Shown here: in pieces, positions 10,669 through 45,667 of the stretch | Layout of the letters: every line of letters starts with the position of its first letter | Numbering within the stretch: position 1 is the stretch's first letter | Sequence record: OM258170 | Length of the DNA: 47,884 bases | Source: Escherichia phage ZL19 | Strand: one strand, 5' to 3' | Made by a program: the position numbers and the translations under genes | Notes under the pieces: model-generated | What the model was told of the DNA's origin: nothing | What the model saw: the letters and a program-made list of their open reading frames with translations, nothing else | Databases searched by the model: none

Positions 10669-11757
10669 ATGAGTAAAATCCGCTATGACAGCGCAAAGTT
10701 TAAGGCAACAATCGACGAGAATGGATTCTTAGTCGACACACCAGTAGTCGCACGTCTCGGCGTGCAAGTCTACTACATGGAGGACGGTCGCACCGTTCGA
10801 GAGTTTCGTCCAGCAGAGGAGGTTTTCAAGTATGAGTCTCTGGCAAGTTACCAGGGCAAGCCAATGACGCTGGACCACGTCTTCGTTAACTCGGAGAATG
10901 CTAAAGACGTAGTGGTAGGTTCCGTTACTGGCAAGGCTGAACCATTGGGTAGCTCGGTCGTTGCTCCGATTGTTGTTTACGACAACACGGCCATTCAGGA
11001 AGCTATGGCAGGTAACGCCAAAGAGTTATCGGTTGGGTACTCCGCAGTTCTTGATGAGACCCCTGGCTGGGGCGACCCTATTACTGGCGAGTATGTACTT
11101 AAATCTGATGGTGAGCAATTCGATGCGCCTGAAGGATGGCAGGAGTTCGACGCAATTCAGCGTGACATTAAAGTTAACCATCTCGCAATGGTATATCGCG
11201 GTCGCGCAGGTATTGCCAAATTGAATATGGACGGTGAGCAGGAAAACCCGTATACTACTGACGTTGATATCAATAAAGAGGATAAACAGGAAATGACAGT
11301 TAAAATTAAACTCGACGGCGCGCAGGAATTTGAAGTCGCACCGGAAATCGCTTCTCACATCGAAGCGCTGAACGCAAAGGCTGACACTGCAATCGCAGAA
11401 CGCGATGCACTGAAAGCTAAAGTAGATGCAATCCCCTCTGAAATCGAGGCTGCTGTTGCTAAAGCGAAAGCTGATGCTGATGCTCTGGCTGCTCTGGTTG
11501 CTGTTGCTGCTGAAGCTGGTGTGAAAGCTGATGGTCTGGACGCTAAAGGCATCAAGATTGCTTACGTTAAAGAAGTCTCCGGCCTTGATGTTGCTGAGAA
11601 ATCTGACGCGTACATCGACGCAGCGTTCGACATTGCCAAAGAATCTGATAAAATGGCTGAAGTACGTAAAGCGACTACCGCTTCCGACAAATCTGACAGC
11701 GCCGATGAGCCTAAGAAATTAGACCCGCGTGCTCGTTTAGCTAAAATCAAGAAATAA
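10669..11757 (+). CDS. scaffolding protein, possibly with N-terminal prohead-protease-like domain
   Basis: C-terminal Ala/Lys/Glu-rich coiled-coil; N-terminal ~200 aa globular region; position before capsid gene. Confidence 0.5.
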   Translation: MSKIRYDSAKFKATIDENGFLVDTPVVARLGVQVYYMEDGRTVREFRPAEEVFKYESLASYQGKPMTLDHVFVNSENAKDVVVGSVTGKAEPLGSSVVAPIVVYDNTAIQEAMAGNAKELSVGYSAVLDETPGWGDPITGEYVLKSDGEQFDAPEGWQEFDAIQRDIKVNHLAMVYRGRAGIAKLNMDGEQENPYTTDVDINKEDKQEMTVKIKLDGAQEFEVAPEIASHIEALNAKADTAIAERDALKAKVDAIPSEIEAAVAKAKADADALAALVAVAAEAGVKADGLDAKGIKIAYVKEVSGLDVAEKSDAYIDAAFDIAKESDKMAEVRKATTASDKSDSADEPKKLDPRARLAKIKK

Positions 11758-28866: not shown

Positions 28867-28888
28867 AAGTGTTTAGCAATTAGTGCTA
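28846..28888 (-). promoter_or_regulatory. palindrome-type promoter module (minus strand)
   Basis: Motif TAGCACTAATTGCTA on minus strand, -10 TATTAT 37 bp downstream, leader CCATCGAAACGAAAC. Confidence 0.5.
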
Positions 28889-30215: not shown

Positions 30216-30220
30216 AAAAT

Positions 30221-30270
30221 ATCTATATATATCAACCTTTTACTCTTATTATTATTATTATATATATTAC
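30221..30270. repeat. (TA)n and (ATT)n microsatellite, AT-rich
   Basis: ATCTATATATAT and 5x ATT then TATATAT. Confidence 0.8.
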
Positions 30271-31789: not shown

Positions 31790-31818
31790 TACCCCATCAA
31801 CAACGAACGAGGTTAAAG

Positions 31819-32469
31819 ATGCAAATTTCAGAATCATGCAAATCAATTTTAAACGCTCTACACACTGCAAAATCGCTATTTGCGAAGGCTGAAAAATCAA
31901 AGCAGAACTCACACTTAAAGAACAAGTACGCTACCTTAGAAGACGTACTAGCGGCTGTTGAGCCAGGCCTAGATGAGTGTGGCTTGGTTATGTTCCAGAG
32001 CGTGCTTGATGATGAACAAGCCAACCGTATGAAGGTTGAGACAAAATTGTTTCATGCTGAATCTGGAGAGTGGGTTAGCTTCTTGATGATCGTCCCAATC
32101 AGTAAGAATGATGCACAAGGTTACGGATCAGCATTAACATACGCTCGACGATACGGCATTACAGCAGCTTTAGGTCTTAGTCAGGCAGATGACGATGGTA
32201 ATCTCGCAGCTAAAGGTGTTAAAGACTTTAAGCGAGAACTTGAGAAGTGCAACACTCTTGATGAGCTTCGCAATGTCTGGAAAGATGCTAAGCAGTCACT
32301 CGATGCGGCTGGATGGAAGGTGTTTGAGCCTTACATTATCGAGCGAAAAGCAGAGATTGAGGCAAATGCAGCAACTGGCTTCAACCCAGCAACACCAAAG
32401 AAAGTTGCAGAAAAAAGTAGTACTACTGAAAAGATTGAAGTAGAATCACAACAAATCGACACATTCTAA
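31819..32469 (+). CDS. erf: ERF-family single-strand annealing protein
   Basis: KYATLEDVLAAVEPGL and GSALTYARRYGITAALGL resemble P22 Erf conserved segments. Confidence 0.8.
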   Translation: MQISESCKSILNALHTAKSLFAKAEKSKQNSHLKNKYATLEDVLAAVEPGLDECGLVMFQSVLDDEQANRMKVETKLFHAESGEWVSFLMIVPISKNDAQGYGSALTYARRYGITAALGLSQADDDGNLAAKGVKDFKRELEKCNTLDELRNVWKDAKQSLDAAGWKVFEPYIIERKAEIEANAATGFNPATPKKVAEKSSTTEKIEVESQQIDTF

Positions 32470-36604: not shown

Positions 36605-37078
36605 TTACTCTTTAGCTTTTCGTGCTGCCTCGTTGGCGGCCTTAATCTTACGCCATGATCGACACTCTGGCTTGGTGGCTAATTCAGCTTCGGTAACCAC
36701 GCGCAGCATATGACGCTTTTTGCAACGTAGTGTAAGAGGCTTGCCGTTACCGTCGAATTGCAGGTCTGGTCGGCAGAATGTAGCTCGAAAACCTTCTCCG
36801 GTTCGTTTGTAGTAGTTGTGCGACAGCTGAGCACCACGCGCAGAAATCATACCACGATTGAACCATTCTTCTACAGTTTGGGGAGTTACCTTTAACTGCT
36901 TTGCGATGTTTGCCTTTGTTCCGAAGAAATCAAGGAGCATCTCAAGCCGTGCGCGTAACCCTGCCCTTACCTCGTCTTTTAAAACGTAGTAGCCTGAAGG
37001 TCGTTTCCGTTGTTTTTTGTCTTCAGTGCGGATGGTTCCGTTATTACCGTTAGTGGTTCGCTTGTCAACTGCACTCAT
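36605..37078 (-). CDS. HTH DNA-binding protein (putative regulator)
   Basis: Basic protein with helix-turn-helix-like IAKQLKVTPQTVEEWFNRG; ATG with GAGGT RBS; divergent from helicase. Confidence 0.5.
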   Translation of the reverse strand: MSAVDKRTTNGNNGTIRTEDKKQRKRPSGYYVLKDEVRAGLRARLEMLLDFFGTKANIAKQLKVTPQTVEEWFNRGMISARGAQLSHNYYKRTGEGFRATFCRPDLQFDGNGKPLTLRCKKRHMLRVVTEAELATKPECRSWRKIKAANEAARKAKE

Positions 37079-37091
37079 TTTGTTACCTCGA

Positions 37092-37133
37092 TAGCATTTT
37101 TTGTTAAAAGTCATTCTTATTTGATGGTAGTAT
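37092..37133 (+). promoter_or_regulatory. palindrome-type promoter module (variant) for helicase
   Basis: TAGCATTTTTTGTTA 37092-37106, -10 TAGTAT 37128-37133. Confidence 0.45.
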
Positions 37134-37179: not shown

Positions 37180-39174
37180 ATGTTGCCTATCGAGAAGCTG
37201 GTTGCCAACTTTGATAAAGAAAGAATCAAACAGATTCAGAAAGATTATCAGTTTGGCGAGATAACCCCTTACGAATTCCAGTGCGTAACATTTGATGCAA
37301 TCGGAAAGTCTATTGGCAAGTACGAGGCACCATTTATCGCTGACCTTTCAGTATCCGCTGGTAAGACAATCATTCTTGCTATGATTGGAAAGCGTATGGA
37401 GCAGCTTGGGCTTCCTTATATGGTTCTTTCTCGCCAGTCAGAAATAATTAGCCAGAACTCAGAAGAGCTTCGTAATTTCGGCATCCGTAATAGCGTCTAT
37501 TGCGCCGGACTTAACGTTAAATCAGTTTACTACCCAACCATAGTGGCTAGCGAGGGTACAGCAGCTAACGGCTTGTTTAAGGGGCTTGGTGACTATGTTC
37601 CTGCCGTTATCGCGATAGATGAGGTCCATCATATGGACCATATGGATATCGTGGAGGCTGAAGAGAACGAAGAAACATTTGAGCAAATGAGCACAAAGAA
37701 AGGAGAGATGGTTTTCAAGGATGGCGTTAATACCGGATTGCTTGGCACTGGTCGCGCGCAGTACACGCTAATAATTATTGAGATGAAGCGCCGCTGCAAA
37801 GAAAAGTACGGTCGTGAGCTTCGTATCTTTGGCCTTACTGGCAGCCCGTATCGTAACAACGATCACATTGTCATTAGCAACCCAAACATCCGTGGATTCT
37901 GGCGCAAAACAGTGATTCAGGTGCCAACCAATTACCTGGTTGATTTGGGGTTTGTTGTGCCAACTGTTTACGGAGAGGTTGGTGATTTGGGTTACGACCT
38001 TAGCGAATTTGCTCCAGACGGTAGTGATGGTGTGAAAGACTTTAGTAAGAAAGAAATGGATGCAATGCAGGAAAAGATTCATCAAAACCAGTCCATGACG
38101 CAAAAGATTATGCAATTTGCCGCAAAGTTCATGGAGACTCGCAACGCTGCGCTTGTGACATGTGCCGGTAAACGTCATTGTGAGGAGGCAGCAGCAGCGC
38201 TTCCTGAGGGTGTAACCTGGGCTATAGTAACTGACTCTACTGGTGAGAAAAAGCGTAGGGAGATTCTTTCTGACGCAGTTGAAGGTAAGTATAAATTCAT
38301 ATTTCAGATCGGTTGTCTCACAACTGGCGTGAACGTCCCGCCATGGGATACATCAATCATTCTGCGCAAAGTTGGTAGTATCACGCTTCTTATTCAGCTT
38401 TTGGGGCGAGGCATGCGAATACTTAAGAAGAAACATAAGGACATGGGGATGGTCAAGGATGATCACGTGGTGCTAGACTTTGCTGGCACTCTTGATGACA
38501 TGGCAGAATTATACTTTGATCCAATCATAGAGGAGGTGCAGGATCAGAAATTCAAGTCCTCTCGTAAAGTTGGGGATAAGTCAAGAGTATGTCAGGCCTG
38601 TGGATATAAAAACTCCCCACTTGCTCGTCGTTGCAATAACGTAATTGACGGAAAGCGTTGTGATAATTTTTTTACATTTCGCTTGTGTGAAGATATAGAG
38701 GACCCGCAGACAAAATCTATTATTAAGAAAGGTTGTGGTGAGAAGAATGATATTGCCGCTAAAAACTGTCGGTGCTGCGGTGAGATGTTAATAGACCCGA
38801 ATGCAAAGTTATCTGGGAAAATGTATCGTAAAGGAGACTGGTTGCGAGTCTACGACTTTAAGATTGGATTAACAAAGAATCAATCAGGGATTGTTGCCTC
38901 ATACGAGGTCATGGCTCATAGTGGTGATAGGTTCCGGGCCTATGAGACGTTTTTTCCAGAGTCAGACCATCGCGTTTGCTCTGTAAGATGGAAAGCATTT
39001 TGCTCAACTCACATAGAGAACAGGACTGAGGCTTTTAGAATTGGCAGGTTACGTAATGCTAAGATGATTATGACTAATGCTCACCTTTTTCGTGCGCCAT
39101 TAAGGATTACGCACAGAAAAAACCAGAAAGGTCAGGATATTATCGCCAATAAATCTTTTACTATGGAGGATTGA
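37180..39174 (+). CDS. superfamily-2 DNA helicase (DExH)
   Basis: Walker A SAGKT, motif II AIDEVHH, 664 aa with C-terminal Cys-rich zinc-finger-like region. Confidence 0.75.
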   Translation: MLPIEKLVANFDKERIKQIQKDYQFGEITPYEFQCVTFDAIGKSIGKYEAPFIADLSVSAGKTIILAMIGKRMEQLGLPYMVLSRQSEIISQNSEELRNFGIRNSVYCAGLNVKSVYYPTIVASEGTAANGLFKGLGDYVPAVIAIDEVHHMDHMDIVEAEENEETFEQMSTKKGEMVFKDGVNTGLLGTGRAQYTLIIIEMKRRCKEKYGRELRIFGLTGSPYRNNDHIVISNPNIRGFWRKTVIQVPTNYLVDLGFVVPTVYGEVGDLGYDLSEFAPDGSDGVKDFSKKEMDAMQEKIHQNQSMTQKIMQFAAKFMETRNAALVTCAGKRHCEEAAAALPEGVTWAIVTDSTGEKKRREILSDAVEGKYKFIFQIGCLTTGVNVPPWDTSIILRKVGSITLLIQLLGRGMRILKKKHKDMGMVKDDHVVLDFAGTLDDMAELYFDPIIEEVQDQKFKSSRKVGDKSRVCQACGYKNSPLARRCNNVIDGKRCDNFFTFRLCEDIEDPQTKSIIKKGCGEKNDIAAKNCRCCGEMLIDPNAKLSGKMYRKGDWLRVYDFKIGLTKNQSGIVASYEVMAHSGDRFRAYETFFPESDHRVCSVRWKAFCSTHIENRTEAFRIGRLRNAKMIMTNAHLFRAPLRITHRKNQKGQDIIANKSFTMED

Positions 39175-40968: not shown

Positions 40969-41050
40969 AGAGCCTGATACTAGTAGCATTAGTCCCACTG
41001 TTTAGCTTTACTATCTTATACTTTATCGTAATGAATTAAGGAACTTATAA

Positions 41051-42187
41051 ATGGCAACTGCAAAAATTACCAACGAAGAACTGCGCGAAGAACTGGCAAA
41101 TGGCATGACAAACAAGGCAATCGCAGAGAAGTACGGCATGAACATTCGCAACGTTGAATTGCGTCGCAGTAAGCTGGCGAAGAGTGGAGAATTGCACGGA
41201 AACCCAGGCATCAAGAAGCTAGTTCCTGACGGTTATATGGTTAAGGGTACGTCAACCATGATTGACGCTGATGGTAACGAGAAGATTAGATGGGTCAAAA
41301 CCTCAATAGACAATGAGCGCCTTGAGGTTTTAATGGAGCAAGCTCGCGAGGCATTCTGCTCTGAGTTGCCAAAGGCCACTCCATCTGAATCACCAAATGT
41401 TAACTTTGATAATGACACACTTGCGATGTATCCAGTTTTTGATTTGCACATTGGGGCGATGGCCCACAAACATGAGTGTGGCGAAAACTATGATACAGCA
41501 ACAGCAGAGAATGTTATGAATGGGTTCTTTGACTACGCTGTAGATAAGGCGCCAAACTCTAAGAATGCTGTATTGGTATTGGGTGGTGATTTCCTACATT
41601 ACGATTCCCTAGAGGCTAAAACCCCGGCCTCAGGCCATATCTTAGACTCTGACAGTCGTTACGCTAAGATTGTTTATGTCGCAATCCGGTCAGTTCGTCG
41701 TGCGATCTCTCGAATGATGGAGAAGCACCAAGTTATTGATATTAAAGTAATAAGTGGAAATCACGACGAAGCAGGGATGGTTTGGCTTCGCGCTGCTCTT
41801 GCTGCATTTTATGAAGACGAGCCTCGCGTAAATGTTGATGTTAGCCCAGCTGCAATGATGATGACAAGCTTTGGAACGACGCTTATTGGATACACTCATG
41901 GCCACCAAATGCGGAAAGCCGATACTCGACTAACTGTTATGGCAACTGATTTTCGTAAGTTATTTGGTCAAAGTGAGTATGTTTACACACATAGTGGCCA
42001 CTGGCATTCTCAGAAGATTACAGAAACAAACTTGGGAATTGATGAGGTTCATGGGCAGCTGGGAAGTCCTGACGCGTACTCAGCAAATGGCGGCTGGCGC
42101 TCTCAACGTCAAGCGGCAGTTATTGTCTACCATAAAGAATTCGGTGAAGTTGGCCGCTTCATTTGTCGCCCTAAAATGTTTAGCTAA
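41051..42187 (+). CDS. metallophosphoesterase with N-terminal HTH-like domain
   Basis: Calcineurin-like motifs GGDFLHYD, GNHDE, GHWH; N-terminal MTNKAIAEKYGMNIRNVELRR HTH-like segment. Confidence 0.6.
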   Translation: MATAKITNEELREELANGMTNKAIAEKYGMNIRNVELRRSKLAKSGELHGNPGIKKLVPDGYMVKGTSTMIDADGNEKIRWVKTSIDNERLEVLMEQAREAFCSELPKATPSESPNVNFDNDTLAMYPVFDLHIGAMAHKHECGENYDTATAENVMNGFFDYAVDKAPNSKNAVLVLGGDFLHYDSLEAKTPASGHILDSDSRYAKIVYVAIRSVRRAISRMMEKHQVIDIKVISGNHDEAGMVWLRAALAAFYEDEPRVNVDVSPAAMMMTSFGTTLIGYTHGHQMRKADTRLTVMATDFRKLFGQSEYVYTHSGHWHSQKITETNLGIDEVHGQLGSPDAYSANGGWRSQRQAAVIVYHKEFGEVGRFICRPKMFS

Positions 42188-42230
42188 TAGCACTTTTTGC
42201 CTAACCCATGCCGTAGAAATGCGGCATAAT
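42188..42230 (+). promoter_or_regulatory. palindrome-type promoter module (variant)
   Basis: TAGCACTTTTTGCCT 42188-42202; -10 CATAAT 42225-42230; CATCGAAACGAG leader. Confidence 0.45.
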
Positions 42231-42271
42231 TACCACATCGAAACGAGATGAACTAAGCGAGGAAACACAAG

Positions 42272-42448
42272 ATGACCAAGATGATTTATTGCACAAAGAA
42301 CAACTCCAAGACCCTGCCATTTACAGTTAACCAGCCGTACAATGCAGAGTACCAGGGTGATGGATATTACAAGATTTACAGCGACGATATGACGTGGATT
42401 TTAGCGCCGATTGAAGGTTCACTGGTTGAATTTATTATCGCTGACTAG
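42272..42448 (+). CDS. small ORF (58 aa)
   Basis: ATG with GAGGAAACACAAG RBS after promoter module; below track cutoff. Confidence 0.35.
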   Translation: MTKMIYCTKNNSKTLPFTVNQPYNAEYQGDGYYKIYSDDMTWILAPIEGSLVEFIIAD

Positions 42449-42474: not shown

Positions 42475-42500
42475 GGGGAGCCTTTGGGCTCCCTTTTTTT
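42475..42500 (+). terminator. intrinsic terminator upstream of lysis cassette
   Basis: GGGGAGCC-TTTG-GGCTCCC hairpin plus T7. Confidence 0.7.
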
Positions 42501-44083: not shown

Positions 44084-45667
44084 TCACCCCAACAGTCGTG
44101 GATTAATGTAAACTTTATCACCAATCAGGCACGTATAGTTTTTCTCATCAAGCATTGGCAGTAAGTGATCTTTAATCTTTGTCATTACACCAGCCTGAGC
44201 TTCGAACGGCTTAACCTTACGAGCCGCTTCATATAGAGAACGAATACCCACTACTCCTTTACCGTTCTTGCCTTGCTTAATTAGAATATCAATCAGCTTA
44301 TTCATCTCGGCATTGTCGCCAGCGTGACCAGCGGCGTTTGCAGATGACAGATAAGTCTTGCTAAGTTCATGGAACATAATTACAGCTTCTTGCATGGTGT
44401 CGAGCTCGATCTCTCTGGACTTCTGTGGACTACCGCCATTTGGGTTGAACCAGTTGCGCACAGTGTGAAGAACAGCTGCAATCCTTATGGCCTGCTTATC
44501 GAACTTACCCAACGCGCCACGTAACATTGTGTGTGAATACTTCCCGCCATCTGCAAGGTGAGGCTCCATCTCCTGACGCGCACGGTTGAGGTATTTCATC
44601 GCTGAGTTGCTAACTGTCAATTTCACTTCTTGCTCGTTCATGATCTCGTGAACCAGACGGAAATAGTTAGCCTTCAGCTCACCATCAATTGGCTCGTATG
44701 TTGAGTTGCCATTCTCATCAACGAATACGCGCTCACCAAGGAATGATTTTTCACGAACCAAAAGGAAACGTTCAGATACACCGATACCACGCGCACCAGC
44801 ATTCATGATGGCGTTGATTGTTTCATCCTGCGCAATTACAGAGATGCAACCCATAGCAACGAAACTCATGTTATTTTCTGCGTTGGCACGCGCGATAGAT
44901 ACGTTACCAGCGTCCCACGCTTTCAGTACAAGCTCGCTGTTCGTTTTCTTGGATCCGTCGCCATATGTCATACCAAGTAGTGAGTTCACGCTCGTTGCTT
45001 CATCCGAGATCACGGCAAAGTTACCCTGGCGGTTGTTTATTCGCGCAAGACCTTCAGGTGTGGTATCTGACACGGGGAAAACGATATCGCATAGCTTCTC
45101 GAGCTTCTCCTCTAACTCCTCTTTCTCCTCAAAAAGTGAGGCCATCTCTGATGGTGACTTCTCCTGCTTCATCTCTTTGGATAATGCAGATAGTTTTGCC
45201 ATGATCTTCTTGCGCTCACGCTTTCGCACTTCATTCAGTCGCTCAGTCTCAGCAATCATTGGAGCAATTGAAAGTGAGTTAATGGCTGACTTACCAGTCG
45301 ATGGTGGCTGGCTTGTTACGACGTAAAGCGAAGTCGGTTGCTGGGTTCCATGATACTCTACAGTAAAACGTCCAAGCATCGCCGCAGAAATACATCCCAG
45401 GAAGTGCATATAAGCAGATGACTCAGGGAACTGGACTGAGCGAGCGATGTTAGATGAAAGTTTACCAACAACATCAATGTCATTGCCGAGTGAGATTACG
45501 GGGTACTTGTCATTAGCAGCATCAATCTCGACTGGTGCTTTCCAGAATGATTGAGACTGACGATAGCCATTAGCATTAATAGCGACGCGCAGGGGTGAGA
45601 GGTTGTCTGCGGCAGCAATTGCCATAACCTGTTCAACAGATAGTTTATCTTCGTTGAAATCAAACAT
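44084..45667 (-). CDS. P-loop NTPase of unknown function (possibly DUF3987-like)
   Basis: 527 aa; Walker A SQPPSTGKSA and Walker B VISDEAT; GGAGAGAAG RBS. Confidence 0.6.
   Translation of the reverse strand: MFDFNEDKLSVEQVMAIAAADNLSPLRVAINANGYRQSQSFWKAPVEIDAANDKYPVISLGNDIDVVGKLSSNIARSVQFPESSAYMHFLGCISAAMLGRFTVEYHGTQQPTSLYVVTSQPPSTGKSAINSLSIAPMIAETERLNEVRKRERKKIMAKLSALSKEMKQEKSPSEMASLFEEKEELEEKLEKLCDIVFPVSDTTPEGLARINNRQGNFAVISDEATSVNSLLGMTYGDGSKKTNSELVLKAWDAGNVSIARANAENNMSFVAMGCISVIAQDETINAIMNAGARGIGVSERFLLVREKSFLGERVFVDENGNSTYEPIDGELKANYFRLVHEIMNEQEVKLTVSNSAMKYLNRARQEMEPHLADGGKYSHTMLRGALGKFDKQAIRIAAVLHTVRNWFNPNGGSPQKSREIELDTMQEAVIMFHELSKTYLSSANAAGHAGDNAEMNKLIDILIKQGKNGKGVVGIRSLYEAARKVKPFEAQAGVMTKIKDHLLPMLDEKNYTCLIGDKVYINPRLLG

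Follow-up and report, generated by a model that had tools for sequence, protein, structure and literature searches.

A LuxR/sigma-4-like helix-turn-helix joined to a probable nuclease-branch metallophosphoesterase in Escherichia phage ZL19 and many other phages

What does a phage phosphoesterase do with a module that resembles a DNA-binding domain? The question is raised by a gene of Escherichia phage ZL19 (sequence record OM258170), whose 47,884 nucleotides were analyzed as a whole and are called the window here: the open reading frame (ORF) at positions 41051–42187 on the + strand. From the letters alone, the sequence-only reading had proposed that its product fuses an N-terminal helix-turn-helix (HTH) to a calcineurin-like metallophosphoesterase. 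This two-module organization was borne out by an AlphaFold2 model, by profile matches to the Protein Data Bank (PDB) and by hhalign; we also checked whether the N-terminus might simply belong to the phosphoesterase fold and contain no HTH, and found a separate three-helix HTH on a linker. The protein has this architecture, an intact active site, nucleases as its closest folds and wide conservation, and no partner ATPase gene was seen in the genomic contexts inspected. We propose, with a probability of roughly 0.55, that it is a stand-alone Mn2+-dependent DNA exo- or endonuclease with a tethered HTH as its DNA grip, working in phage DNA replication or recombination or in the breakdown of host DNA. 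The parts of the gene are as follows.

41038–41042, + strand: Shine-Dalgarno sequence AAGGA, 8 nucleotides before the ATG, read from the sequence
41072–41182, + strand: residues 8–44, three-helix HTH of the LuxR/GerE/sigma-70-region-4 type, from the AlphaFold2 model, PDB profile matches and hhalign
41183–41233, + strand: residues 45–61 (SGELHGNPGIKKLVPDG), flexible linker, with a predicted local distance difference test score (pLDDT) of 66–74 and conserved G46, H49-G50 and P59
41234–41362, + strand: residues 62–104, beta-hairpin (62–71 and 77–86) and helix (88–104), from the AlphaFold2 model and conservation
41408–42184, + strand: residues 120–378, binuclear metallophosphoesterase core of about 260 amino acids, from conservation, pLDDT of 94–98 and fold neighbours

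According to the open-reading-frame listing, the ORF is complete and encodes 378 amino acids followed by a stop codon, and its ribosome-binding site is good. Because an in-frame TAA (41048–41050) lies directly 5' of the ATG, a longer N-terminus or a start-codon artefact is ruled out, and the first 50 residues are therefore part of the protein.

All five motifs of the metallophosphoesterase core are intact: motif I, D131-x-H133; motif II, G179-D180-F-L-H183; motif III, G236-N-H-D239; motif IV, H283-G-H285; and motif V, G316-H-x-H319. They are invariant in 26 T1-like homologues and invariant or at least 90% conserved in 142 diverse homologues, which are 29–41% identical to the query except for one relative at 64%; D131, H133, D180, N237, H238 and H283 are invariant across this 142-sequence alignment. 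AlphaFold2 supplied with the same alignment returned a mean pLDDT of 93.9, with 94–98 in the core, and a predicted template modelling score (pTM) of 0.79. This run superseded an earlier one with 26 close homologues, in which the pLDDT was 71.8 and residues 318–353 fell below 50. The predicted core has the beta-alpha-beta-alpha-beta sandwich fold of the superfamily. In Pfam, the Metallophos profile (PF00149) gave a partial match over residues 159–318 that did not reach the gathering cut-off (18.2 versus 21.5 bits), because the family is divergent; the fold is not contradicted by this score. The sequence-only reading had assigned the C-terminal 300 or so residues to the phosphoesterase. Its calcineurin-like motifs were confirmed, but the core is smaller, at about 260 residues (120–378), and a hairpin/helix element (62–104) intervenes between it and the HTH.

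A near-invariant, family-specific segment was observed between motifs II and III (41597–41659, residues 183–203: H183-x-D185...T191-P-x-S-G-H196-x-L-D199-x-D201-x-R203). No counterpart was identified in either Mre11 or SbcD, and the segment may help to bind the substrate. Two other matches were rejected as spurious: GlgS (residues 217–253; E 0.004 in Pfam and 0.0016 in NCBIfam), which was far under the cut-offs and covered one helix only, and ArnD (E 0.1), the only match from a single-sequence PDB search.

The branch of the superfamily can be approached through motifs II and III. In Mre11, motif II takes the form GDLFH, and the lambda-type PPP phosphatases carry GDxVDRG and GNHE. The phage protein has GDFLH and GNHD, which are Mre11-type forms and not PPP forms. 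The closest solved folds were those of the PolD DP1 exonuclease, Mre11 and SbcD, with six further Mre11/SbcD entries within the top 20, and small-molecule phosphodiesterases ranked next in the fold comparison (MJ0936 13.9, LpxH 13.5, Rv0805 12.4). PP5 scored 9.0, and lambda phosphatase lay outside the top 60. Foldseek returned TmMre11 at E 5e-9, Rv0805 at 6e-8 and DP1 at 1.7e-7, with template modelling (TM) scores of about 0.4, and the viral fold neighbours carry the labels 'DNA polymerase II small subunit' or 'metallophosphatase'. On motifs and model together, the best assignment of the enzyme, which we make with moderate confidence, is to the nuclease branch (Mre11/SbcD/PolD-DP1-like).

These data bear directly on the identity suggested before, that of a phage Ser/Thr phosphatase. 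A lambda-type protein phosphatase equipped with a DNA-binding domain would have the calcineurin-like fold and the general five-motif pattern in common with the phage protein. That identity is nevertheless unsupported, because motifs II and III are of the Mre11 form, GDFLH/GNHD instead of GDxVDRG/GNHE, and the closest folds are nucleases; nor was any PPP or ApaH-type family detected by the Pfam, NCBIfam and PHROGs searches. We find it scarcely credible.

Another alternative is that the protein cleaves nucleotides or oligonucleotides (2',3'-cyclic, 3',5'-cyclic or cyclic oligonucleotide substrates), alters host signalling or destroys defence messengers, and uses its HTH for regulation or localization. 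One phage metallophosphoesterase, D29 Gp66, is reported to be a 2',3'-cyclic nucleotide phosphodiesterase (Dutta et al. 2014, cited in PMC9038960). A conserved putative DNA-binding HTH, however, would be of no obvious use to a small-molecule enzyme, and the phages in which the family is core differ widely in their hosts and in the defences they meet. The PADLOC defence models yielded 0 families at E ≤ 1, and we found no anti-defence report on the family in the literature. Such an activity is possible but unlikely.

We then considered the N-terminus. In the AlphaFold2 model, its helices span residues 8–16, 21–27 and 32–44, the turn occupies 28–31, and 32–44 is the recognition helix; the pLDDT is 94–96 over residues 11–40. 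Separate sequence searches were weak yet mutually consistent, all pointing towards LuxR/GerE/FixJ-type HTHs. Pfam gave GerE at E 0.044 and 13.9 bits, short of the gathering cut-off of 23.5 bits, with HTH_24 and Sigma70_r4_2 as further weak matches; NCBIfam gave TtrR (E 0.0012) as well as FixJ; and in the PHROG search the N-terminus matched regulator families. A profile of the N-terminus found SsrB (E 0.0028), EsrB, FixJ, DosR and ComA in the PDB, with alignments that span the helix-turn-helix, and the family-wide profile found GerE, RhlR, DesR and VraR. When a LuxR-type hidden Markov model built from four PDB sequences was applied to 141 diverse N-termini, it recognized 22 at E ≤ 0.01 and 41 at E ≤ 0.1, and the reversed controls gave 0. 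In hhalign, the HTH aligned with four PDB HTHs at 96% probability, a value that is corroboration rather than an independent test because the templates had been picked from the earlier matches.

The LuxR/GerE/FixJ effector domains (GerE, SsrB, NarL, DosR and RhlR) and sigma-70 region 4 have the pattern 'G.T..eIAe.l.is..TVe.hr..i..K' in common with the phage N-terminus. A canonical LuxR/GerE HTH has four helices, whereas the phage protein has three, with the linker in place of the C-terminal dimerization helix. The N-terminus is thus best described, on sequence and model, as a LuxR/sigma-4-like HTH and not as a canonical GerE domain, and we regard it as a putative DNA binder. LuxR-type effectors are combined with a receiver or ligand-binding partner domain; here, the HTH is joined to an enzyme instead. 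Residues G18, T20, I24, A25, Y28, R33, V35, E36 and R38 of the HTH are invariant in the T1-like homologues, and in T1-like phages the conservation of the HTH equals that of the core. Judged by this conservation and by the HTH-like N-termini of nearly all diverse representatives, the HTH is ancestral and under strong purifying selection. That the HTH would direct the enzyme to DNA, as the sequence-only reading had suggested, is the most reasonable inference from these sequences.

The region between HTH and core clarifies how the modules are divided. G75 and W81 of the hairpin region are at least 90% conserved family-wide, and the hairpin/helix element leads into the core near residue 120. An HTH-less homologue in Campylobacter phage PC14, 317 amino acids long, begins exactly at the hairpin ('STLYNDKGKVVLQWVK'), although such short members are rare. 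Since the HTH-less members begin there, the hairpin is part of the catalytic module, to which the HTH is an ancestral but separable addition.

The linker itself differs across the family. Most distant relatives carry a strongly conserved 'KAA..G(Y/W)SPEHDMTH' after the HTH, where the T1-like proteins have 'AK.G..HGN'. This His/Asp-rich linker motif might reach the active site or serve dimerization.

The sequence-only reading had taken the fusion for something unusual among phage enzymes. It proved to be the normal architecture of PHROG 704, present at full length in 1,956 phage records and in nearly all of 149 diverse representatives. The protein matches phrog_704 ('DNA repair exonuclease') from end to end (residues 4–377 against positions 2–389 of 390, E 1.9e-155). 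Members such as HOR61_gp07 of Escherichia phage vB_EcoS-IME253 (hereafter IME253), Rtp61 and the 'proof-reading exonuclease' of TLS belong to the same family over their full length, HTH included, and the ZL19 protein is a member with nothing to set it apart. By tblastn, we retrieved 2,049 phage records, the 1,956 mentioned above being those with at least 80% of the query covered; their hosts include Escherichia, Klebsiella, Salmonella, Vibrio, Shigella, Yersinia and Rhodobacter. A HMMER search of 1.84 billion cluster representatives gave 4,718 relatives at E ≤ 1e-3 and 1,026 at E ≤ 1e-30. The best 150 of these contained 149 new representatives, almost all of 350–440 amino acids and nearly all with an HTH-like N-terminus, which has a median of 68 residues before the hairpin and mostly reads 'T.RQ.E.L...GS...AA..LG.....V......V..KAA..GYSPEHDMTH'. 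In the Drexlerviridae, this is a persistent core gene, found in 508 of 522 members (PMC13164509). The gene and its two-domain architecture are thus already catalogued (PHROG 704, RefSeq) and are the standard form of a very common phage protein. The family name itself evidently rests on remote homology only.

ZL19 is a T1-like coliphage of the genus Rtpvirus, family Drexlerviridae, and the surroundings of the locus are 99.9% identical to IME253, whose HOR61_gp07 is 99.7% identical to the ZL19 protein and is labelled 'DNA repair exonuclease' in RefSeq. In the window, the rightward unit consists of an SF2 helicase gene, a VRR-NUC nuclease gene, small ORFs, the phosphoesterase gene as the last large one, and a DUF7244/SH3 gene. 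A strong terminator-like hairpin (42475–42494, + strand; 8-bp stem with 6 G-C pairs, followed by a T-run) separates the DUF7244/SH3 gene from the holin gene, so that the early/middle rightward unit seems to finish with the phosphoesterase and SH3 genes, which probably do not belong to the lysis operon. Similar hairpin terminators recur throughout the genome (repeat family D2). In IME253, the gene occupies the same position, before the SH3, holin, endolysin and spanin genes (see also PMC13164509), and DUF7244 has recently been described as a stand-alone SH3 domain tied to Drexlerviridae lysis modules (PMC13164509). Two genes of the window matter for what follows.

42272–42448, + strand: DUF7244 gene, 58 amino acids (E 4.7e-29), between the phosphoesterase gene and the holin gene
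36605–37078, − strand: HTH regulator gene of phrog_2856, 157 amino acids (E 2.3e-83), divergent to the helicase operon

Mre11 and SbcD hold DNA by means of a capping domain and the Rad50/SbcC ATPase. The annotation of the IME253 genome contains no Rad50/SbcC-like gene, and none lies beside the homologues in Rhodobacter, Vibrio, Jersey-like Salmonella, Dhillonvirus, Campylobacter and Yersinia phages. A search for a conserved partner gene likewise found none in the seven phage contexts and the one metagenomic contig examined. In the Campylobacter phage, the HTH-less homologue comes directly after a DNA ligase gene.

A polynucleotide kinase gene is an occasional neighbour, lying directly 3' of the phosphoesterase gene in ACG-M12 and Yersinia phage 531. 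This adjacency could point to an end-healing enzyme, a 3'-phosphatase or 2',3'-cyclic phosphodiesterase that mends broken RNA or DNA ends together with the kinase, such as those left by a host anticodon nuclease. As is generally known, bacterial Pnkp uses a calcineurin-type phosphoesterase domain for such a purpose. Where the SH3 gene is missing, the genes most often found downstream are those for polynucleotide kinase and deoxynucleoside monophosphate (dNMP) kinase (PMC13164509), yet they have been read as an extension of a nucleotide-supply module (PMC13164509), and the neighbouring kinases are annotated with a 3'-phosphatase of their own. Moreover, no polynucleotide kinase gene lies beside the gene in the window or is annotated in the near-identical IME253 genome, and the closest folds are nucleases rather than the lambda-phosphatase-like domain of Pnkp. 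End healing is therefore very doubtful as the function of the protein.

Our preferred reading, the tethered nuclease, can be set out stepwise. The catalytic module (residues 62–378) would be a binuclear, probably Mn2+-dependent metallophosphoesterase of the nuclease branch, with DNA as its likely substrate. Its own HTH, on a flexible tether, would anchor the enzyme to duplex DNA and so take the place of the capping domain and Rad50/SbcC. The enzyme would then act in phage DNA metabolism, on DNA ends or on replication or recombination intermediates, alongside the helicase and the VRR-NUC, RecE-like and Erf-like proteins; alternatively, it may degrade host DNA.

Stand-alone metallophosphoesterases of Cluster A mycobacteriophages offer a functional precedent: exonuclease or DNase activity has been demonstrated for them, and they take part in the replication of phage DNA or the degradation of host DNA (PMC11795197, PMC12287305). 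The DNase A10ZJ24 Gp48, for instance, breaks down linear, plasmid and genomic DNA in vitro, does the same to host DNA in vivo, and helps in counter-defence (PMC12287305). A further candidate precedent, T5 A1 as a host-DNA-degrading enzyme of the superfamily, found no support in a 2026 preprint on T5, and a preprint on PUA-Cal-HAD deals with T2 denA and has no bearing here.

Several observations weigh against the tethered-nuclease reading. Similarity to every solved structure is only modest (TM about 0.4, 10–18% identity), so that the substrate is not readable from the fold alone. The orientation of the HTH relative to the core is not defined in the model (pTM 0.79; linker pLDDT 66–74). In IME253 and other phage groups, the gene usually lies at the lysis/packaging boundary and not within the replication module. 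A DP1-like proofreading role does not fit the T1-like phages because, by the IME253 annotation, they encode no DNA polymerase. We found no experimental work on the PHROG 704 family in the literature, and hence no member that has been assayed. Finally, HTHs of the LuxR type usually serve transcription factors in sequence-specific binding and could point to a regulatory role.

A possible target for such a role is provided by a promoter-like repeat, which has the layout aaATAGCACnnnTTGCTAaa (palindrome TAGCA-N5-TGCTA), a fixed 22-nucleotide spacer, TATAgT, and a conserved leader CATCGAAACGAGAGGAG before the start codon. In its aaATAGCACnnnTTGCTAAA form, it precedes most non-structural operons, with about 18–20 oriented copies in the window, and the motif gave 32 matches there versus 4.9 ± 1.9 expected. 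Earlier work has described the repeat in TLS, T1, Rtp and Rogue1, and no factor that binds it is known (PMC11447400). The motif search placed copies as follows.

near 1476, 2914, 3695, 4640, 8215, 16236, 31747, 35558, 37092, 39593, 40276 and 42188, + strand: repeat copies
near 28874, 30081, 45726, 46494, 47440 and 47681, − strand: repeat copies

The phage protein might thus be primarily or additionally a sequence-specific regulator, whose HTH binds a phage element (the aaATAGCACnnnTTGCTAAA repeat or a site at the early/lysis boundary) and sets the timing of transcription, with the enzyme as a second activity. LuxR-type HTHs are, as general knowledge has it, classic promoter-binding modules, and the fixed 22-nucleotide spacer would centre the palindrome near −42, where LuxR/TraR-type activators bind. 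One repeat copy abuts the stop codon of the gene (42187–42234), and the gene often lies immediately before the lysis or late genes, like Q in lambda. The abundance of the palindromic repeat and its want of a known binding factor fit this role, as does the fact that T1-like phages have few sigma-70-like promoters and no recognized sigma factor (PMC11447400).

By contrast, Dhillonvirus and Jersey-like phages have a protein with the same recognition-helix core (RNVxxRxxxLxK), but the T1-type repeat gave only 1 and 3 matches in them, which is chance level. ZL19 also encodes at least one dedicated HTH regulator, the phrog_2856 protein. A weak repeat copy, that at 37092, sits in the intergenic region shared by its gene and the helicase operon, and the phrog_2856 regulator is a candidate binder of the repeat. 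Because the repeat is absent from carriers with the same recognition-helix core and a dedicated regulator is present, a link between the HTH and the repeat is unsupported speculation. In addition, the phosphoesterase gene lies downstream of repeat copies, so its product could not be the first activator; the catalytic residues are fully conserved across thousands of relatives, which argues for catalysis as the selected function; and HTH-less homologues exist. A regulatory function is, in our view, quite improbable.

Distinct repeats occur in the other groups of phages with this protein. In Dhillonvirus phage BMA1, we observed another intergenic repeat, TTGGTTGC(A), in about 20 copies that often form tandem pairs just upstream of genes and are oriented with them. 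It may be the Dhillonvirus counterpart of the T1-type promoter repeat. Examples, in BMA1 genome coordinates, are listed here.

41–79: BMA1 repeat
11026–11040, − strand: BMA1 repeat
31807–31824, − strand: BMA1 repeat
39138–39161: BMA1 repeat
44769–44811: BMA1 repeat

Catalysis and recognition might also be combined in a sequence-directed enzyme that recognizes a phage element (the aaATAGCACnnnTTGCTAAA repeat near −42, or a site at the early/lysis or packaging boundary) and couples DNA cleavage or processing to a switch of the phage programme. The variable recognition-helix positions 31, 32, 36 and 37 could retune its specificity between phage groups. We consider this a very long shot; if true, the sequence-directed enzyme would be the missing factor for the repeats in phages with almost no sigma-70-type promoters.

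Outside the locus, the window as a whole is a mosaic relative of IME253 and not the same phage. Identity is 97–99% over most of the length and 84–90% at about 30.0–32.6 kb, 35.1–39.6 kb and 45.8–47.1 kb, and no IME253 match was found over about 1–4.2 kb and 32.6–35.1 kb of the window, the latter being a tail-fibre region. AT-rich tracts (ATT repeats after TATATA) occur in two or three places, among them 95–146 and 30218–30260 (repeat families D7 and D8).

As a discovery, a protein present in about 2,000 sequenced phages carries little weight. It has some value as a target, being the product of a persistent core gene of the Drexlerviridae and several other siphophage groups, and an Mre11/DP1-like enzyme that would have a LuxR-type HTH in place of the Rad50 partner and capping domain. 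Knowledge of its substrate would clarify how the polymerase-less T1-like phages process DNA in replication and recombination, or degrade host DNA, and would replace an annotation drawn from homology only and copied across thousands of genomes.

The tethered-nuclease reading places the protein among known systems in the following way. With Mre11 and SbcD it has in common the nuclease-type core, with motif II GDxxH and motif III GNHD; about 185 of its residues align to Mre11/SbcD chains of 320–480 residues. Those enzymes continue into a C-terminal capping domain, whereas in the AlphaFold2 model the last core strands of the phage protein are directly followed by its C-terminus at residue 378. They work with Rad50/SbcC, whereas the phage protein has no such partner gene and carries an extra N-terminal HTH and hairpin/helix element. 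Archaeal PolD DP1 has an OB fold and the DP2 polymerase as its partner; the phage protein has an HTH at its N-terminus and no DP2. From the lambda Ser/Thr phosphatase (PPP), a member of the same calcineurin-like superfamily, it differs in lacking GDxVDRG and GNHE. The mycobacteriophage enzymes Bxb1 gp47, A10ZJ24 Gp48 and D29 Gp66 are likewise phage-encoded, have no partner ATPase and have Mre11/DP1 as top fold neighbours, but they are about 255 amino acids long, have no HTH and carry motif I near residue 10, so that the kinship is at the superfamily level only. Bxb1 gp47 was also considered as a member of the family and rejected, the hhalign probability against the family profile being 10.8% with alignment over motifs III–V only, and it serves as a functional precedent only. 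Compared with Mre11 and SbcD, the phage protein would be a nuclease-type core to which an HTH, in place of a capping domain and a partner ATPase, may lend the grip on DNA.

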